Shown: positions 15,796 through 62,433 of the stretch, one piece after another
Layout: the number at the start of each line of letters is the position of its first letter
Position numbering within the stretch: position 1 is the first letter of the stretch
NCBI GenBank assembly: GCA_964016885.1
Contig: OZ024743.1
Location: 28,210,001 to 28,274,000, forward strand
DNA length: 64,000 nucleotides
Direction of reading: 5' to 3'
Origin: Eledone cirrhosa
Taxonomy: Eukaryota
The notes under the pieces: generated by a model
Databases searched by the model: none
What the model saw: only the letters and a program-made list of their open reading frames with translations
Told to the model about the DNA's origin: nothing
Translations under genes and position numbers: made by a program

Positions 15796-15874
<79 letters not shown>
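15796..15874. repeat. (TATC)n microsatellite, 5' flank of Tx1 element A
   Basis: Read directly; the repeat resumes at 21655 after the element. Confidence 0.95.
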
Positions 15875-16092
15875 CGATGGACACATGTGCTGAGCTCGCT
15901 CGGTAAGTTTTTGTTTAAATTCATACGGAAATTGTAAACTGTAAACTTTCATTTTTGTACCATTTTGTAGAGGGACTGCCAGGTCAAATTTTGATCTGGT
16001 CGGTCTCTCAAAATATTCTGCGCCTTTGGGCGAAATAGTATTGTGAACATTTTATCTTTCGAAAAACTTCGAAAAACCCTATTTTGAGAAAA

Positions 16093-16272
16093 ATGGCTGA
16101 AGCATCTTCACCATCAATCAAAGAAGGAAAGGGGAAGTCATACTCACAGCTTCCCCCTGCCACTGTCACAGCAGCAGATGCCAAAGGCAGAGGTCAGAGA
16201 GAGGAAGAATTGTCTTCACCTGTTGACCGACCACTAGATGTAGCCACAACTACACAAGAATTTGAAAACAAC

Positions 16273-16303
<31 letters not shown>

Positions 16304-17955
16304 GCAACAATAAAGACAACAAAAACAACAACAACACAAACGTCACAAGTATCCACACACCAAACGAGAAAGACAACAACAACAACAAAGATGAAAACAA
16401 CTCAAACGACGAGAAACAAAACAATACTAAAATCCAAAGCGAAAACAAAATATCTTTTGCACAAACGGCTAAATTATCAGTCGCGTATGTGCTTGAAGAT
16501 ATTTCAAAAGCAAAAGAAATGCTGGAAAAAGCCAAGAAATATGTATCTTTTGGCGAAAACGGTTCGTTTTCTATACATTCACCTCCAGAACTAAAAAAAC
16601 AGACGGAATTACGAACTGTCATATTCCGAACAATTTTAAATAAAACAAAGAAACCAACGCAACCATCTCAAGCCGAAATTCAGTTAGTCTTGAAAGACGC
16701 GATGAGCGACATCACTTTTATACAAAAGGATAAACTCTATGGGAGTTTATCCATATTGATGAAAGACGAATTGGCGGCGAAAAAATACTCTGTGTCGCCA
16801 ATTCGGTCCACACACTACACCTTCTTCCCCACCTACATGGGTAAAAAAACCCAGAGGATATGGATAACCACCATCACCCCAAACATAAACTACTGGCGGT
16901 TACTAACCGGCTTCCTCAATTTAGACGAGGACAACCTCATTTCAATAGGGAAGGCATCCGGCGACGCGTTCAGTGGAACGAGCATCGAAGTTCTGACCCA
17001 AATAAGGCCAGAACGCATCGCCCAAATCCCTGAGCGCGTCATGCTGGATGACCGTACCCACCTCAACATTATTGTGGAGGGTAGCGTCCCTCCTGTTTCC
17101 TCTGTGGCAATAGAGGTCACCTGAGGGCTGCCTGTCCCCAGCTCACACAGAAAAAAACACTGCTACCAACACCAACACCGCCCCAACAACAACAACAAAA
17201 ACAACCACAACAACAACAACAACAAAAACCAACAACCCCACCACAACCACAACAACAACAACAACAACAAACACGTGAAAAAATAACACAGAATACCGTC
17301 CCACCCAATCCCTCCCCACCCAAAACAAATACAAAAACACACACACCGCAAACACTACCAGAAAACATACCCCTCCCACCCAACAAGGAAGACGAACCCC
17401 TTTCGTCGCAAGACGAAAAAGATCCCTTCCAACAAGTAAAAAGAAAGAAGAGGAGACGCACCACAGACACACATGTTAACTTTAACCCCCCCCCCCAAGA
17501 GAACACAAACTACACACAAACCACCCCTCCCTGTCACACAACACTATTTGCTACACAAAAAAAGACCTTGCAATATACATACATGAACACAGACAACAAA
17601 GAATTACGGAAAACAATTTCAGCAAACCCTTCGGTCCAAACCGAAGGGCCTAACTTTAAAACTGCTGTGGGACTACCTCATTTAAAAATGATAAAAGTCC
17701 CAATGCACTTGTACAAAACACTGAAAATAAATTTCACGGAGGACGTGCCCCCCCCCCCCCCCTGCGCCAAACCAATTAACCGCGTCCTCCTAAAAAATTC
17801 CCCCCCCCCACCCAGACATCCACTCAACCACAAACACCCCAACCCCACAACACACCGATGCCCCTTCACTTCCACAAACCACCACCCCACCCAACAACCC
17901 ATCCCCAACCAGCATGGAAATTGAGCGGCCCGTTTCCCGGGACGCAGAGAGGTAA
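16093..17955 (+). pseudogene. Tx1 ORF1 (gag-like, zinc knuckle), frameshifted
   Basis: ORF 16084-17124. After a 1-nt shift near 17083 it continues RPSCFLCGNRGHLRAAC (CX2CX4HX4C), then a Q/T/P-rich region ending MEIERPVSRDAER*. Confidence 0.8.
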
Positions 17956-17979
17956 GTGCCTTTTCTCCTTACCACCAAC

Positions 17980-20900
17980 ATGGCTGTGCTAAGAGTAGGG
18001 TGTCTAAATGCGCGTGGCCTGGGCTCGTCTTGGAAGCAAGCAATGCTTCTAAATGACCTCAGGTCACAATCTATAAATGTGATGGTTATCTGCGAGGCCC
18101 GGATCAGCAGCATGCGACAGCTAGCCCCCACCTTTGACGACTTTGAGATGCACGCATCTCTCTGTCAGCCCGGAGGTGGGGGTGGGGTTGTCGTTCTGCT
18201 GCAAAAACATATGGGCCTTGCAACACAGATAGTTCACTTGGACCCAGGGGGTCGACTGGTGGTGCTGGACCTTGGCAGTGGTGAAGGTAGAGCCTTTAGG
18301 CTGGTAGCCGCATATGCCCCTTTTGGGACTGAGCGGTCCGACTTTTTCCAGCGTCTGGAGTCTTTTAGTGGGGGATTGGAATGGTATCCTGGATGCACGT
18401 TGGGACTATGCAGGGGCATGTCCCGATAGGGAGGGGTGCAACAGCCTCAAGGGGTTACTCGGCCGATTTGACCTGGCCGATAGATTTCGACTAGATTTTC
18501 CGACGGTGCCAACCTGGTCTTGGTCAAATCGCAGCGGATCATCTAGGTCGTACCTAGATAGATTTTTAGTTAGAAATAAGGACAGGGACTTTTTAAGTTG
18601 TCCAGAAATGCTCATGGTTGGCTATTCAGACCACAAATTGGTGACCTGCATGGTCAACCTTGATAGAACGCATAGACAGGGCCCCGGTTACTGGAAGCTC
18701 AACTTCTCCTTGCCGGCAAGTAGAGCCTACAGGGATCGGATTAGTACGTTAGTTAAGGAACGGTTGACTGGAGCGATCGTCAACAGCAGGTGGTGGGTAT
18801 CTCTAAAGAGAGAGATTAGAGTAGTCTCGATAGAATTTAGTAAGGTTCTAGCTGCGGATAGGAATAGGAAGGAAAGGGAGCTAATACATAGAGTAGAAGA
18901 GGCAATTAGAAGCGGCGACGTGGCCAGAGTGCTAGCGTCGAGAACGGCTTTGAGCCAGTTTTTCGACGCGAAGCACGAAGGCTGCGTTGTCCGAAGTAAA
19001 ATACGTGCTCTAGGGAACGAGGGGACCAAAGCTGTTAGCTGGGCCCGCGTGACAGAGGCCAACAGTGGAACTAAATCCACCATCCGGTCTTTGCGAGACC
19101 TGGATGGACGGACGATTCTTGAGCCTAAGCAGATGTGTGAGGCCTTTCAAAGGCACTTTGCCCGACTGTTCGGGAGGGGCGGGGAGCCGGTTGGGAACGT
19201 GGACTTCGGTCCATACCTCGACGGCCTGCCGCGCCTCTCGGACAGGGAGGCGAAGTCCTGCGAGGAGCCGATTTCGGCCGCTGAGATAGAGGACGTGCTG
19301 AGCCAATGCGGCAAACGCAAATCCCCGGGTCTCGATGGTCTTCCTTACGAATTATATCTAGCTATGCCGGACTTGTTCCCCGATCTCCTCGAGGCGGTCT
19401 ACTGCAACTGGCAACAGAACGGGAGAATTCCCTGTACTGTGACCAAGGGCCTAGTCACGCTAGTGAGGAAGGACGAGAACAAGGGGGACGAAATAAGTAA
19501 CTTCAGGCCCATAACTCTGCTAAATACAGAGTTACAGATTTTGGCCAAGGTGCTAGCAAAGAGGTTGGCGCTTGTCGTGGGCAACCTGGTGGGAGATGCG
19601 CAGACATGCGCTATCCCGTCCAGGTCCATCCATGACAACCTCCACCTCATGCGATACATCATAGAGAGGGTTGGGAACGAACCCGGCTTTGGTGGGGCTC
19701 TGATCAACTTGGATCAATCTAAGGCGTTCGATAGGGTCGACCATGGTTACCTGGATGCGGTGCTAGCGGCGGCAGGCTTCGGACCCGTTTTCAGGGGCTG
19801 GATCACTGCTATGCACAGCAGCCGCATCTGCTCTAGGGTCAAGGTGAAAGGCTACCTCTCGGAGCCGTTCAAAATCGCGCGGTCCATCCGACAAGGGTGC
19901 CCTCTCTCCTCCCTTCTGTATGTGTTGACTCTCGAGCCACTACTGCGGAAGTTGGAGTTGTTGCAGGGCATCCATTTGGAACCGGGATTGCGGAAAGCGG
20001 TGTCGGCCTACGCCGATGACGTGACAGTAATGGTGTCGACGGCCTCCGAAATCGAGGCGGTCGGCACCTTACTGGAGGAGTACGAAAGGTTCACAGGGCT
20101 AAGCTGAACCGGGACAAGTCGATCGGTTTGCAACTCGGCACGTGGAGGGGCAGACCGATGCCCTCCGATGGCGTCGTCGGACGCTGGACGGAGGGCCCGG
20201 TGAAGTTGCTCGGGGTCTGGTTCGGACCGGACCTCCAGGTGGAGAAAAACTGGGCGGAGGTTACGAACAGGGTGTTTGCACTGACCCAGAAGTGGGCCAG
20301 TTGCAAACTATCCCTGAAAGGTCGGGCGGAGGTGGCGAACACCTACATAGCGCCCGTCATCTACTACCGCCTGACCGTAGTGCCCTGCCCAAGGGAAACC
20401 CTCACCAAGATGGAGCGCGCACTCTTCCAATTCCTTTGGAAGAGGCGGGCTCCTATGGTGAGGAGATCCATCTGCTGTCAACACCCTTCGAAAGGAGGGC
20501 TGGGGATGCCGTGGCTAATGATGCGTAAACACGCATTAAGGCTACGGCACCTCTACGTATTCCTCACCGGTCAACCGGTGTGTGCCTCGTTTGTGAGACG
20601 AACCTTTCCCAGACTCGTCTCACTCACCGAGCTGCAATCCTGGGTCAAGCAAAGACCGAGAAAACTGGGCGCCTGGCACACTGAGTGTGCCCAGGCGCTC
20701 ACCGCCCTATGGCAGGCGGATCCGGTTATCAGTGGAGACTCCACCGCAACATTCTATAGGGGGCTGGTACGCAGCAGGTGCGACGACGCCCTCGGAGAAG
20801 CCCTAGACATGGAGGAGGACGAACTGGCCAGCCTGTTCGGTAGGACATTCAGCCCGGGACCTATGGACAACTTCCAGAAGTCCCTGGCCTGGCAGTGCTA

Positions 20901-21390
20901 CCGAGGGGCTTTACCCGTTCGAGAAAGGCTCTACAGACACGGGCGCCCGGGTAGGGACCCCGCCAAAAAGATCTGTCCCAGATGCGTGTGTGACGAGGAA
21001 ACCGTTGCACACGCATTGGTACACTGCTCGGGCGTAGCCGATCTGTGGGGCTATGTCGAACAACTGCTGTCAAGGGTGGGACCGATCCGGTTGACCACCG
21101 AGTCTATTGTAATGATCAAGCCGCCTCCCCCCTTCAAAGATGAAGCAGAGGCGGTGTTTCTGTGCGTAATAGCCATGGCGAAAGAGGTTGTATGGTGGAC
21201 GCGTCTGAAAGGACTGAGGTCAGGCACCTTTCTCTCTGGCCAACAACTGGTCCGTTTCTTCCGATATCATTTCGGAAGAAGGATCAGGATGGAGAGAGAG
21301 GTGCTGCACCCCAGTCGTTTTTATGAAAGGTGGGTGAAAGTGGCGAGAATGGCCCGTGTGAATGGGCCTTCTCTTTACATAAGCCTGTAG
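17980..21390 (+). pseudogene. Tx1 ORF2 (APE endonuclease, reverse transcriptase, C-terminal Zn), about two frameshifts
   Basis: Motifs LNARGL, GDWN, SYLDRF, YSDH, KSPGLDG, RPITLLN, DQSKAFDRV, RQGCPLS, YADD, CPRC..H..C. Breaks at ~18365 and ~20100. Confidence 0.92.
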
Positions 21391-21656
21391 GTGGAAAGGA
21401 GGAAGGAACGAGGGAGCACCCCCTCTCTGTGCTCCTGAGGAAAAGGGTTGCACACTTTTTTCGGGGGTGTGTGCGACCCCCCAAGGCGCCTCCTCTCTAT
21501 TGAGGATTTTGTTATAAATTTTATTTTTTGTTATATCTTATTTTATTTTTATATTTTGTTATTGCCTCCTCCTTATTGAGGACGCCTTTTTGTGTAAACT
21601 CCCCCCTTTGTACTTGTCCCACTTTTGATGCCCTAGTGGCAAATAAAAGAAACATA

Positions 21657-21687
<31 letters not shown>

Positions 21688-21729
21688 ATCTATTTATCCA
21701 TCTATTTATATATCATCTATCTGTTTCTT

Positions 21730-56579: not shown

Positions 56580-59500
56580 CTTCTCTCTCCACCCTCACCT
56601 TCCTTTCCAGGTGAAACTTGAAGAAGTTGATGAGGGATTGGCTGAAGAGAAAAGTGTATGTCTTTAGTCCTTTCAACCTGGTCCACCATATAACCTCTTT
56701 CGCAACTGCCACCAGACAGAGGAAAATTTCCTGCTCTTCCTGACCTAAGGAAGGCGGTGGATCGATCTTCACTATGGACTCGGCCGATAGCCGGATTCGT
56801 TCTACACGCGACAGTAGCTGTTCGACATAACTCCACAAGTCAGTAAGGCACGGACATTGGACAAGTGCGTGCAGAACGGTTTCGTCGTTCTGTGCGCATC
56901 TTGGGCAGGTCCGTCTGACAGCACTTCCGTGCCTGTAGAGTTTATCCCGAACCGGCAGTACCCCTCGGTAACACTGCCAAGCGAGGGATTTCTAGAAATT
57001 GTCCATCGTCCCCGGCTCAAAAGTCCTCCGGTACAGACTGGTCAGTTCGACTTCGTCGAGGCCCAAAGCTTCTCCGAGTGCGTCATCGCACTTGCCCACC
57101 ACTAATCCTCTATAGAACTCGAGAGTGGAAGTTCCACTGATCGCATTGCCCGCTTGGTAGAGGGTAGAGAGTGCCAGGCAACATTCCAGGTACCAGTCAC
57201 CCAGTCTCGGTCTCTTCTTGACCCAGGACTGCAGCTCAGTCAAAGAAATGAGCTGCGGAAAGGCCCGTCTGATAAACGGCGACCACACCTGTTCACCGTT
57301 GAGGCAGAATATCTGGAGATGTCTCAGCCTCAACGCATGTCTGCGCATCATTAGCCACGGCATGCCAAGCCCTCCGCGTAGAGGGTGCTGGCAGCAGATG
57401 GACCGCCTCACCAACGGAACTTGTCCCCTCCACAAGAATTTGAAGAGGAGCCGTTCCAGCTTGACGAGGCGCGGACGGGGGCAAGGCACGACGGTCAGGC
57501 GGTAGTAGATGACAGGCGCGATGTACGCATTCACCACCTCCGCGCGACCTTTCAGTGATAGCTTCCTCCCAGCCCATTTTTGGGTGAGACTGGCTACTCT
57601 GCTCGTTACCTCGTCCCAATTCTTTTCCACCTGGAGGTCTGGTCCGAACCAAACCCCGAGCAACTTTACCGGTCCGTCCGTCCAGCGCCCCACGACGCTG
57701 TTGGACGGCATGGGCTTGCCTCTCCAGGTTCCGAGCTGCAAGCCCACCGACTTTTCCGGGTTAAGTTTGGCTCCTGTCAACCTTTCATATTCCTTCAATA
57801 AGGTGCCGACCACCTCGATTTCTGAGGTGTTCGACACCATCACGGTGATGTCGTCCGCATAAGCCGACACCGCCTTTCCACGTCCCGGTTCGAGCGGGAT
57901 GCCCTGCAACAGCTCCAGCTTCCGCAGTAAAGGCTCGAGAGTCAATACGTACAGAAGGGAAGAGAGAGGGCACCCTTGACGGACCGATCGGGAGAGCCTA
58001 AATGGTTCCGAGAGGTGGCCATTAACCTTGACCACCGAGCATGTGTCGTTGTGCATTGCAACGATCCAGCTTCTAAAGACAGGGCCGAAGCCAGCTGCTT
58101 TGAGGACAAACTCCAGATACCGATGGTCGACCCTATCAAATGCTTTCGATTGATCTAAATTGATCAGGGCCCCACCGAAGCCAGGTTTACATCCTACCCT
58201 CTCTATGATGTATCGCATGAGGTGGAGATTGTCGTGTATGGACCTGGCTGCGATTGCACAAGTTTGCGCCTCCCCAACCAAATCCTCGACGACAAGCGCC
58301 AATCTCTTTTCTAACACCTTGGCCAAAATCTTAAACTCTGTGTTGAGCAGAGTTATGGGCCTGAAGTTGTCTAATGTATCCCTCTTGTTCTCATCTTTCC
58401 TTATCAGCGTCACCACTTCCCTGCTCACAGAACTGGGAATACTCCCATTCTGCTGCCAGTTGCAGTAGAGTGCTTCGAGGAGTTCGGAGAACATGTCTGG
58501 CATATTTACGTAAAGCTCGTAGGGCAGGCCATCCAAACCGGGTGACTTGCGCCTCATGCAGCCGACAAGGGCGTCCTGAATTTCGGCTGAAGTAATCGGC
58601 CTTTCGCAGCGCTCAGCGTCGACCGTCGAGATGCGCGGCAAGCCGTCAAGGTAGGGACTGAAATCCGCTACTCTCTCTGACTCGCCACTCTCTCTGAACA
58701 ACCGAGCAAAGTGCTGGCGAAAGGTCTCACACATCCGCTTGGAATCGCTTATCTCGTGTCCGTCTCGGTCCGCCAAAGACCGAATTGTGGTTTTATTACC
58801 ACGCTGCGCCTCCACCACGCGGGCCCATCGAACAGCTTTAGTTCCCTCGTTTCTCAGCGCACGCGCCTTAGTTCTGACAATGCAACCTTCGTGTTTGGCA
58901 TTGAAGAAATGGTCTAATGCCATTCTCGCCGCTTGCACGTCAGTTGCGATGCCACTACAAATAGCCTCGTCTAACTTATCTACCAGCTCCCCTTCCTTTC
59001 TATTTTTCTCTAACGCTAGTTCTTTGCTGAACTCTGTCGAAGTTACTCTAATCTCTCTTTTGAGAGCCACCCACCATCTGTTGTTGATGATCCCCCCTAT
59101 CAACTTTTGCTTAACTAAATTGTTGACTCGGTCCCTGTAAGCCTTACGTGCCGGAAATGACATGTTCAGCTTCCAGTAACCCGGTCCTAACCTACGCGTT
59201 TTATTTAGGTCGACCGTACAGATCACAAATTTGTGATCTGAATAGGCGACCGTTTTAAAAAGTGGACAGCCCACACTATTTCTATCTATTTTCCTAATGA
59301 AGATCCTGTCTATATACGATCTAGATGACCCCATTCGGTTGGTCCATGTCCATACTGGCACAGTGGGGAAATCTCGTCGATACCTGTCAGACAGTTGGAA
59401 CTGGCTGAGTAGGTGCTTGAGGCTTTTGCACCCCCCGCTCCTATCGGCTACTCCCACACAATCCCAGCGTGCGTCTAAGATGCCATTCCAGTCCCCCGCT

Positions 59501-62120
59501 AACAGTAAAGGGCGAGACGTACCCAGAAAGGTCTCCAGGCGCCTAAAGAAGTCAGGTCGTCCGGCCCCTGTAGGGGCGTAGACGGCCAGCAGTCTAAAGG
59601 CACCACCTTCGCTACTGCTCACATCCAAGACCACCAACTTACCGTCCGGGTCCCGGAAGATCGACCTTATCTCGAGATCCAGTCCTTTCCTAAACAGCAC
59701 TGCTACCCCACCCCCCATTCCCGGCCTGCTAACAGATGCGAAGATCTGATAGTCGTCGAAAATGGGGGTAGTGCGCGCGTGTCGGAAATTCTGGTCTCGC
59801 TTACGGCAATCACATCGATTTCCAGCGACCGGAGGTCGTTGAGCAGGCGACCCTGCTTCCAGGGTGACCCCAGGCCGCGAACATTTAAACTTCCTACTCT
59901 TAATATGGCCATATTGGTAAGCTAAGAGAGAGAGAGGGAAGGTTTACTTACCTCCCGGGTCTTGTGAAGGTCGGGTGGTTCGACCTCCATGGTTGGTGGG
60001 GTTTCTTTTGGGAACCTCTTTAAAAGTCTTGATGTAGGTTTCACATTCGGGGTTCCCACGTCTTGAGGAAAGCTCTCTCGAATTTCTTTGAAGGAATTGA
60101 GTGACATTCGGACCAGAAGCAAATCTTCTGGCACGCAAAATGTGCTCATTTCAAAAATCTCCCCCTGTTTGAATGTCCTCGCTTCGCGCTAACAGGGCCA
60201 TCAGTTTATCGTTGGCCCTTCTGACAAGCACGAAGTTTTTAACATTTTGTTGGTGTGGTTTTATTTGTTTTCGTTTTGGCGAAGGTGGTGGCGATGGTTT
60301 TGGTGGTGTTGTTTCGGGTATGTCTATGTTTGTTGTAGGTGTGGTGTCTGCAATTTCAGGTATTTGTGTGTTTATTTGTACTTGTGTTTGTTTACGTTGT
60401 TTCCGTTTCGGGGATTGTGGAGGTGGTGTCGATGTTGCTGTTGGTGATGATGTTATTGGGGAAGTGTTTGCGTTAGTGGTGTCTGTATTTTTTGTTGTGT
60501 GTTTTTGTGTTTTGTTAGGGCTTTTTTTTGTGAGTTTTCTCTGTTTTTTTGCACTTTTGGGTTTTCCTTCATCTTCGCTGCTGGAAGACAAAGGGTCTGT
60601 GTCTGTGAGTGTCTCTGTGTCTGTGTGTGCGTTTATTGTTTTGTCTATGTGTATAATTGGGGGGGGGGGGGGAGCTTTCCTAATTTTCTCCTTGGATTGG
60701 TTTTGGTGTTGGTGGTGATCCGGCTGCTTTTTATGTTGGTGTCAGTGTTTTTGTTGATGTTGTTTTTGGTGGTGGTGGTGGTGCAGCTTTCCGTGCTGAC
60801 ACTGGCGTTGGCAACAAAGGTGGTTTGCGACCCCCTGCCTTTTTGCGCTGAGGGCAGAAGGCTTGAAGATGCGTTGCTTCCCCGCAGACGAAGTAGCATG
60901 GCCTTCTTCCGTCAATCATTAGTTGGATTGTTGTCCCGTCCTGCAGGCGGGTAAAATCCGGGATGTTATTCATATCCTCCGGTTTCATTTGGAGAAGAAT
61001 CTCCAAATCCATTCCGGACCAGTCCTCTCTCTCTGTCCTTTTGATGTCCAGGAGGGTAGTGTCTGTCCCCTCCTCGATTACGCATCCCAGCAGCCACCAT
61101 ATGTTCATTCCTGGTGGGATGCTGGGAATGCGTACCTTCACTGTCCTTTTACCCATATAGGACGGATGCATGATAATGCGTTCCGTTCTGCAGGGGGTCA
61201 CCGATGCTTAATAGCGAGGGCCTCGGTTTTGAACAGTACCGAGATGGTACCGAACTGTTTGCCTCTTGCTTTGTACTCTATGTTACTTCCCATGTTCTCC
61301 AAAGCAGCCTCTACCTCTGCTTGGCTCGCAAGTTCCACTTTTCGTGTCTGCACCGAAATACATCGAAAGAACACCGTCCTCCTTTGCATGGCCGCTATTG
61401 CCTCGTCCGGGATGGTCAGGTTTGCCCAGGACTTCTCCCGTTTAATTAGCCTCCACGCTTTGGCCAACTGTTCGTCTTTATCGCTAATATCAATATCAAT
61501 ATTCAATAAGCGCTTTGTTTTTGCTGCTGCAGCAGCAAATGTGGTGTTTCTGATGCTCTTATTGTTGTTGTTGTCATTCTTGCTGTTGTTATTGGTGTTG
61601 CCACCGCCATCCTTGTTTACATTGAAGCTTTCGGTGTTATTGTCGTTATTGCTCTGAGTTGTTGTTGTTGTGGTGGTGGTGGTGGCGGTGGTGGCGGTGG
61701 CAGTGATGTCGTTTTCAAATGATACTGCTGCTATCACAGTAGGTTGTGACGGTAGCTTTTGAGTTTTGCCTTCACATTCAGTAGAGTGGAAGACAGGCAT
61801 AACTGTAGCCGTCGTCGTCGTGGTGAAATCTACAGTGGCTGCCGTTAAACTTTTGACCTGAACGTTGTTTACCGTTTCAAGGTCGAACATTTCCATAATT
61901 TTCTTTTGGTGGGAAGTGATTTTTTTCGAAGTTTTTAAAAATAAATCTGAATATTCGGGCTTAAAGCCCGAATATTGAGAGGTATCCTTCTCTTTAAATC
62001 AAGATGTTTACCTTAAGTTTCGTTAACGACAAGAAAATACAAAAAATGACACTTTAAAACAGCTTAAAGTTACGAACCTTTTCCCCCGCAGATTTGTACT
62101 GTCTTCACACATGTGCGGCC
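56580..62120 (-). mobile_element. Tx1-clade L1 (element C), complete 5' end but missing 3' end
   Basis: ORF1 pieces 61896-59922. ORF2 starts at 59912 with a 908-aa open stretch (59718-56992) and a CAG>TAG stop at 56992. (ATT)n at the 5' end. Confidence 0.93.
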
Positions 62121-62149
62121 ATAATAATAATAATAATAATAATAATAAT

Positions 62150-62433
62150 GCTTTCTTTATTAACCACAAGGGTTTACACAAAGTAGACATTAAGGACAGT
62201 ACAGGACAATACTGGACGGTACAAAAGGGCATTTCTGCGTGTAAAAAAAAACAAAAAAAAACAGAGGATGTAATAATAGAACAATGAAAAAACTCCTCAG
62301 TAAGGGGGAGACTTCAGAGGGACATTCGTGGAGAAAGCCCATTAAAAAGCCACAGTGACCCTGACCACGAGGGCAAGTGCCCTCTCCCAGTTTTCCACCT
62401 TTAATTTACAGACACATACTCAGAGGCCCATTC
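62150..62433 (-). mobile_element. Short 5'-truncated copy of the element B family (3'UTR)
   Basis: Matches 40543-40815, with (ATT)n on both sides. Confidence 0.9.

Follow-up and report, generated by a model that had tools for sequence, protein, structure and literature searches.

A young family of APE-type retrotransposons inserting into (TATC)n microsatellites, and its (ATT)n-specific sister lineages

The analysed window, the whole stretch of 64,000 bp of contig OZ024743.1 from Eledone cirrhosa, contains a long interspersed nuclear element (LINE) of the APE type, here called element A, which is embedded in a (TATC)n microsatellite. We found that the family of this element inserts in one orientation into (TATC)n, and that its own endonuclease probably chooses the site by nicking the bottom strand after 5'-GATA-3'. 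Related APE-type elements of the same window (B, D and E) reside in (ATT)n, and genome-wide the microsatellite targets of A and B/D/E are mutually exclusive. A preliminary description of this DNA had reported (TATC)n at both junctions of element A, which was affirmed by TRF (Table 3).

Target preference of the A and B families

Genome-wide counts were made with exact matches to the 3' 23-mer of each family in the 3.0-Gb assembly. For the A family 731 copies were counted, the reversed-pattern control yielding none. TATCTAT followed in 553 of them (75.6%) and TTATTAT in none. The 23-mer of the B family occurred 2769 times, with TTATTAT as the next sequence in 2372 cases (85.7%) and TATCTAT in no case. 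Cross-over between the TATC and ATT targets was therefore zero in thousands of insertions. Within the window, TATCTAT starts at 0.053% of the positions (both strands, the A flanks included) and TTATTAT at 0.116%; the TATC association of A is far above chance. The preliminary description had suggested tabulating the junctions per family, and had reckoned with A copies in random or ATT sites as evidence against a switched specificity. The counts did not refute its claim: not one of the 731 copies was followed by TTATTAT.

Junctions were also read in individual loci. Among the first 30 fetched A loci, 27 had a readable 3' junction, of which 24 exhibited TATCTAT, one a degenerate array and two other sequence (four loci without an exact-probe match were left out of this sample). 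In the B family, (ATT)n followed the 3' end in all 30 fetched loci. At the opposite end, 29 of 30 full-length 5' ends of the A family directly adjoined (TATC)n, the exception being L101, and eight of nine 5'-truncation junctions adjoined TATC-type repeats, the ninth representing an internal rearrangement in a related copy. The GATA orientation was not seen at any of the A-family junctions read. Since the upstream junctions of full-length and 5'-truncated copies are also made of (TATC)n, the TATC preference is a target specificity and not a self-made 3' tail. Many break points that BLAST indicated for 5'-truncated B copies were internal rearrangements, but the junctions of L040, L041, L045, L046, L049 and L053 on (ATT)n looked clean. 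In L060, a 5'-truncation junction of the B family adjoined (CTT)n and not (ATT)n.

Copies of the A family are often stacked, the 3' end of one copy being followed by a few TATC units and the 5' end of the next. Such stacks include lineages of 75-85% identity with variant termini of their own, each again followed by TATC. The contigs of four runs (X1, X4, X5 and X6) end at the repeat; at a loose contig end in X5, a 3' end is followed by TATC units and a truncated copy. For the 3' region of A, no RNA record was listed.

Insertions outside perfect arrays and probable position of the nick

On chromosome 1, an exact TATCTAT was present in 79 of the first 100 listed A copies. Twenty of the other 21 copies were read. 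Their 3' flanks consisted of (TA)n in eight cases, of mixed TA/TATC in two and of degenerate or offset TATC arrays in four, while the remaining copies were followed by a single TATC(T) and then other sequence (four), by TATAA (one) or by a poly(A) tail (one). Nineteen of the 20 flanks start with TAT. (TA)n is a secondary target of the A family. Judging from this sample, the share of A copies on target rises to about 85-90% if single TATC sites and degenerate arrays are added. A single TATC(T) suffices as a target, and the microsatellite would therefore be a dense run of sites. Of the first 100 B copies on chromosome 1, five lacked an exact TTATTAT; three of these lay in degenerate ATT arrays, whereas the other two had entered the same satellite, each at a single (A)TTAT and flanked by a duplication of 4-5 bp.

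At lone-TATC sites, the A copy is flanked on both sides by a duplication of 7-18 bp, which opens with that TATC (Table 1). The duplications begin exactly at the element end ...ACA and open with TATC or TATA. As the element ends at this point, the junctions would place the first nick directly behind a 5'-GATA-3' (or TATA) of the bottom strand.

Table 1. Target-site duplications flanking A copies outside of regular arrays
Locus	Duplication	Length	Remark
L075	TATCTTTCACA	11 bp	
L071	TATCTCTTTC	10 bp	insertion in the one satellite unit variant holding TATC
L079	TATCTACT	8 bp	
L080	TATAATTTTAAGCGG	15 bp	
L142	TATCTATCTGTTTCTCAC	18 bp	
L140	TATCTATCTCTATC	14 bp	
L141	TATCTAT		uncertain

The copy with the poly(A) tail (L065, G000:C1:138799500-138806385) carries poly(A) directly after ...GAAACA, followed by (TAA)n; the boundary of the element can therefore act as a poly(A) site. 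The copy looks like a polyadenylated A transcript that was inserted by the machinery of another element. In the orientation of L065, (TAA)n is a Dong-like site (see below).

Divergence of the ORF2 domains

The claim that the ORF2s of A and its relatives are homologous holds for B, D and E. A and B/D/E share 69-71% of their nucleotides, B, D and E 73-77% among each other, and A 83% with A2, a second, full-length TATC lineage (L086) that has TATC at both ends. Their 3' ends are homologous as well: GGTTAATAAAGAAAACA passing into TTATTATT in the B family corresponds to GGCAAATAAAAGAAACA passing into TATCTATC in A. These comparisons support the view that A and B/D/E are sister lineages of APE-type LINEs.

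To locate the difference between the classes, the two TATC lineages (A and A2) were compared with the three ATT lineages (B, D and E) domain by domain. Frameshifts are present in the APE domains of all five copies, which were therefore joined in a codon alignment with an X at every break. APE is the most class-diverged domain of ORF2 (Table 2), while the reverse transcriptase (RT) is without such a gap. In maximum likelihood trees, the stem branch leading to the TATC clade had a length of 0.32 with APE as compared to 0.18 with the remainder of ORF2. This pattern would be expected if the change of target went along with a change of the endonuclease, but it is no proof of it. The class-separating APE residues cluster at alignment positions 47-92, 111-115, 152-163 and 205-235. 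In the preliminary description, A and its relatives had been regarded as a natural pair for mapping specificity residues of APE. The divergence of this domain speaks for that proposal, yet the pair is not a minimal one: 56 of the 234 comparable positions separate the classes.

Table 2. Identity between and within the target classes for the parts of ORF2
Part of ORF2	Between classes	Within ATT class	Class-separating positions
APE	56-60%	68-85%	56/234 (23.9%; 32 if the ATT group must be uniform)
Linker	58-63%	62-76%	40/212 (18.9%)
RT	70-80%	71-78%	30/288 (10.4%)
C-terminal part	65-67%	72-77%	68/373 (18.2%)

The outgroups P0006 and P0008 did not polarise the target change: of the 32 strict APE positions, they were ATT-like at six, TATC-like at three and different from both at 23. 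The order of the A clade, D, the database relative P0005 and B+E has a support of 52-53.

Choice of the target

According to the mechanism that we favour, reverse transcription would be primed from the ...GATA-3'OH directly at the last bases of the RNA, and the nick in the second strand would fall 7-18 bp downstream, at no preferred sequence. A microsatellite offering nick sites in close succession would lead to head-to-tail stacking of copies. The difference between TATC and ATT targeting would reside in the APE domain, in which the classes are far more diverged than in RT, and APE would be the sole determinant of the target. A few UAUC units at the 3' end of the RNA could aid priming, the AATAAA being situated 7 nt from the element end.

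Some observations weigh against this mechanism or restrict it. The 5' junctions of 11 copies from short arrays or from outside arrays were read for a duplication, and three of these copies (L066, L138 and L139) have none. The nick position is read from junctions, and within arrays the register is not visible. In the APE domain, the stretch aligned to the hairpin loop of the L1 endonuclease is nearly the same in both classes, and the linker and the C-terminal part are also fairly class-diverged (18-19% of the positions). The 56 class-separating positions of APE mix drift with function, because only two TATC and three ATT lineages were compared, all of them decayed copies. The low support for the branching order given above belongs here, too. 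Finally, the poly(A) signal lies so near to the element end that transcripts may carry target repeats, which would mean a contribution of the RNA.

This last point leads to a different explanation, namely that the RNA is the main determinant of the target. Transcripts would extend past the element by a few units of the repeat in which the source copy resides. Such a tail would anneal to a nicked repeat and restrict productive priming to that place; for the endonuclease, a loose preference for T/A-rich sites would be enough. We consider this unlikely, even though several data agree with it. In A, only 7 nt separate the AATAAA from the end, and the distances are similar in the diverged TATC lineages as well as in B and E. 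Polyadenylation cleavage usually takes place further downstream of the signal, which here means inside the flanking repeat. The 5' ends bear heritable degenerate pieces of repeat (TCTCTCTA, CTCTTTA, TCCATTA), which are common to many independent copies; in L088-L117 these pieces lie between the (TATC)n array and CGATGGACAC. As many independent copies share such short 5' variants, transcription seems to begin within degenerate repeat, some bases ahead of the element. Together with 25 nt of extra TATC-like sequence at the 5' end of L142, the variants indicate that transcripts containing flanking sequence exist. The secondary target (TA)n also agrees with three of the four bases of the TATC unit. 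On the other hand, 4-5 target bases at a fixed register are enough at the lone-TATC sites, and the duplication begins exactly there, which is predicted by a sequence-specific nick and offers weak support for annealing. Copies residing in (TA)n have founded no sub-lineages seeking (TA)n, according to a tree built from the terminal 900 nt of 35 copies (7 TA, 17 TATC and 11 other, after removal of six shorter ones). On this tree the copies flanked by (TA)n do not group together, the TA label needing seven changes for seven rows as compared to a mean of 6.5 after shuffling, and thus represent sporadic slips of the same lineages. Furthermore, the poly(A) directly after ...GAAACA in L065 demonstrates that at least some RNAs end at the element boundary without repeat units, and the strongest divergence between the classes is found in APE.

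That there is no targeting at all, the (TATC)n being self-made 3' tails or the copies having been spread with their flanks by segmental duplication, is very improbable: the 3' repeat always has the same orientation, as a self-made tail would give, and some 3' tracts comprise only 2-3 units (L012, L016), but (TATC)n lies upstream of full-length copies and of 5'-truncated copies cut at many internal positions, TATC belongs to the duplication on both sides of the copy at non-repeat sites, element-free (TCTA)n arrays exist (e.g., window positions 35925-36051), and the sequence outside the arrays varies between loci. A variant of this idea, in which upstream repeats are in all cases the 3' tails of upstream copies, was excluded by L075, L071, L079 and L142.

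Structure and age of element A

The body of element A runs from CGATGGACAC to GGCAAATAAAAGAAACA between the repeats, and both flanks are (TATC)n in the orientation of the element (Table 3). Its last bases are ...AATAAAAGAAACA, the poly(A) signal preceding the final base by 7 nt. ORF2 begins at position 17980, encodes APE, reverse transcriptase and zf-RVT in this order and terminates with the stop codon at 21388-21390. Its APE frame is broken by a short deletion or frameshift near 18380-18400. A second frameshift is located within RT near 20090-20107, beyond which coding goes on in the next frame. The zf-CCHC matches are weak (E 0.004, under the curated cut-off) and shifted in frame against ORF1. 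With frameshifts in ORF1 and ORF2, element A is a dead copy.

Its family is very young and abundant and was moving very recently. Element A is 98-99% identical to many copies elsewhere in the genome. The recent mobility is evident from short terminal branches in the 35-copy tree (median 0.0034 substitutions per site) and from open ORF2 frames of 1153 amino acids among the fetched copies.

A splice-donor-like word, (G)GTAAGT(T), is situated at a distance of about 25-45 nt from the 5' ends of A (15900-15912) and A2, and a further GGTAAGT at the ORF1/ORF2 boundary of A (17953). The Dong-like element C, though unrelated to A, has (G)GTAAGT(T) at this distance from its 5' end as well (about 46541; in the second fragment C' about 52110). 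Weaker donor-like forms, GGTTTGT and GGTTCGT, were seen near the 5' ends of B and D.

Table 3. Features of the window discussed in the text
Feature	Position	Strand	Basis
Upstream half of the target microsatellite, (CTAT)x19.8, i.e. (TATC)n in another phase	15796..15874	+	TRF, 100% matches; sequence
Element A (5780 bp), APE-type LINE specific for (TATC)n; full-length but broken	15875..21654	+	sequence, ORF list, Pfam
ORF1 of A; end shifted to another frame, CCHC knuckle from 17085	16096..17124	+	ORF list; weak zf-CCHC
APE endonuclease domain of A ORF2 (MAVLRVG...GDWNG...SDH...GPGYWKLN)	17980..18712	+	translations, codon alignment, identity to APE of B/D/E
Reverse transcriptase core of A	19487..20107	+	Pfam RVT_1, E 1.6e-23
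C-terminal zinc-binding motif zf-RVT of A	20878..21048	+	Pfam PF13966, E 8.7e-6
AATAAA plus 7 nt (AGAAACA), exact 3' end of A	21642..21654	+	sequence; same terminus in 731 genomic copies; duplications begin directly after
Downstream half of the target microsatellite, (TATC)x17 decaying to TATC-like units	21655..21722	+	TRF; sequence
Element B, (ATT)n-specific sister family	40542..46406	-	+ strand (AAT)n flanks 40477-40541 and 46407-46498; family junction counts
Element C, R2/R4-group (Dong-like) LINE with restriction-like endonuclease	46499..about 52010	+	flanks, R2 PDB matches
Element D, second (ATT)n lineage; 3' end lost	about 56600..62120	-	5' junction on (ATT)n at 62121-62149
5'-truncated 3' fragment, B-like, between two (ATT)n blocks	62150..62433	-	sequence
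Element E, third (ATT)n lineage; continues past the window, remainder taken from L087	62466..64000	-	sequence

Relatives of A in the window

All surviving junctions of B, D, the B-like fragment and E consist of (ATT)n in the orientation of the respective element: B has the repeat at both sides, D at its 5' end, and the fragment and E at their 3' ends. The statement of the preliminary description that every intact junction of the relatives is (ATT)n thus holds for these four. It does not hold for element C, which is flanked by (AAT)n/(TAA)n and is no relative of A.

A short element resembling a tRNA-derived short interspersed nuclear element (SINE) is located at window positions 40418-40475 on the minus strand. 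It ends with ...CCTTGTGCC(T/A)AAAGTAGAAACA, followed by (ATT)n. The same element was detected upstream of the 5' end of E (derived from L087) and in several 5' flanks in L041, L045 and L052. Both its ...GAAACA end and its (ATT)n site are those of the LINEs, and it may therefore be mobilised by the B-type family. Directly upstream of the B array lies a (TA)n tract of 2.3 kb (about 1140 units, 76% matches; 37907-40214).

Element C

Element C had been counted among the relatives of A, which is wrong. Its reading frame of 1141 amino acids has no APE match in Pfam, and a PDB search gave R2 proteins as the best solved match (E 4e-30, as against 1.8e-13 for L1 ORF2p), residues 1029-1102 aligning to the restriction-like endonuclease part of R2. 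In its own orientation C has (AAT)n/(TAA)n on both sides; these are the same arrays as those used by B, in the opposite orientation. R4/Dong elements possess a single ORF, in which RT precedes a CCHC motif and a restriction-like endonuclease of the PD-(D/E)xK kind, and reside in (TAA)n. On the basis of the missing APE match, the R2 similarity, the C-terminal restriction-like endonuclease and the (TAA)n flanks, C is a Dong-like element of the R2/R4 group and may belong to R4 rather than R2. The available excerpt of PMC3812793 gives (TAA)n as the target of Dong, including the snail member DongBg. C resembles Dong (R4 clade) in its restriction-like endonuclease and in its two flanks, which are (TAA)n when read in the direction of the element. 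With B/D/E, Dong has the microsatellite in common but differs from them by its restriction-like endonuclease in place of APE and by the opposite orientation. A second 5' fragment of the C type starts at 52067.

Repeatedly, B elements and Dong-like C elements were found to share an (ATT)n/(AAT)n array, in which they have opposite orientations and meet head to head or tail to tail (window positions 46407-46498; loci L041, L047, L051 and L057). Two unrelated kinds of LINEs thus use one microsatellite.

Clade placement and comparison with known elements

An N-terminal APE domain of ORF2 was recognized by Pfam (Exo_endo_phos) in B (E 8e-10) and D (E 2e-10). The APE of A, which contains the GDWN and SDH motifs, could be aligned to those of B and D across 235 positions and is 56-60% identical to them. 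Against the structure of the L1 endonuclease, APE domains of the ATT class gave E values of 0.001-0.004, while the PDB search with the TATC class disclosed weak, partly spurious matches (L1-EN variant 2v0s, E 0.07). The zf-RVT motif (PF13966) after RT was matched in A, B and the C-terminal part of E. Because human LINE-1 ORF2p was the best solved relative in a PDB search with the ORF2 of D (E 7e-53 versus E 6e-19 for R2 proteins), the sequences support an assignment of A/B/D/E to the L1 group. An ORF1 with one or more CCHC zinc knuckles is a feature of the L1 group and the Tx1 clade. Membership in the Tx1 clade is suggested by layout and habit. None of 59 database relatives bore the name of a transposon family, the only name given by a source being neprilysin, on a partial match; a look-up of clusters yielded no names, either. 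In the excerpts of papers on cephalopod repeats, L1-Tx1 and Dong-R4 are among the families described as abundant or recently active, with no mention of targets (PMC13282606, PMC8967140), which for the clade is a suggestive hint only.

Insertion into microsatellites is a known habit of LINEs, as the partial texts available describe (PMC4494074, PMC3812793, PMC4640811). The closest parallels in habit are Kibi and Koshi, Tx1-clade LINEs of teleost fishes targeting (TC)n and (TTC)n, respectively, whose specificity is ascribed mainly to the endonuclease in the excerpts at hand (PMC4494074, PMC3812793). Like the elements described here, they are APE-type LINEs with sequence-specific insertion into microsatellites, and in A the same habit is present, with both junctions in one microsatellite and one orientation in most copies. 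As the units are TATC (A) and ATT (B/D/E) in a likely mollusc host, and not TC or TTC as in the fishes, A and B/D/E are not Kibi or Koshi themselves; the likeness is one of habit. For crocodilian Tx1 families (Tx1-1_Crp group), the available part of PMC4494074 reports (TTCC)n/(TTTC)n as targets, specificity being called from 20% of the flanks. They are Tx1-type elements and, like A, prefer tetranucleotide microsatellites, but differ by pyrimidine-only units close to those of Kibi and Koshi, and the 76% exact flanks of A compare with a threshold of 20%. Waldo (ACAY)n and Mino (AC)n, quoted from an excerpt of PMC3812793, are likewise APE-type and microsatellite-specific, also for a unit of 4 nt, but they belong to the R1 clade, live in insects and use other units.

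With human LINE-1 ORF2p, the elements share the layout of APE, RT and a C-terminal cysteine motif, and it is the best solved relative of their RT part. L1 itself has a loose nicking preference for TTTT/AA, a poly(A) end and no site specificity. By contrast, the nick would here occur at a defined word of 4-5 nt, and the copies lack an A-tail (one exception in 20). In the literature, as far as the texts were available and with Repbase, Dfam and supplements outside the search, we found neither a LINE targeting TATC/GATA nor an APE-type LINE targeting (ATT)n, which agrees with the preliminary description, where no GATA-repeat-targeting family had been known. Family A adds a new target repeat, TATC, to the microsatellite habit already known for such elements.

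Significance

How APE-type endonucleases read sequence is understood in few cases only, and site-specific LINEs are natural examples of safe-harbour integration. The two sister families provide material for nicking assays and domain swaps, comprising thousands of young copies, exclusive targets, a nick site mapped from the junctions and a shortlist of class residues. The contrast between A and B/D/E is a natural one for endonuclease specificity, of moderate interest to specialists. A wider reading, to which we give even chances, is that one genome harbors a series of related, recently active LINE endonucleases, each reading a different short word at a fixed register, with a code that could be read from about 30-56 candidate residues and re-aimed. 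One of them would nick at GATA^ in (TATC)n and another, also an APE enzyme, at (ATT)n, which until now has been known as a target only for the unrelated Dong type. If this is true, the recognition code of APE-type retrotransposon endonucleases would become readable and could be redirected. For the genome itself, the stacked elements explain the frequent interruption of TATC and ATT microsatellites, a point to be considered in repeat annotation and assembly and whenever such loci serve as markers.

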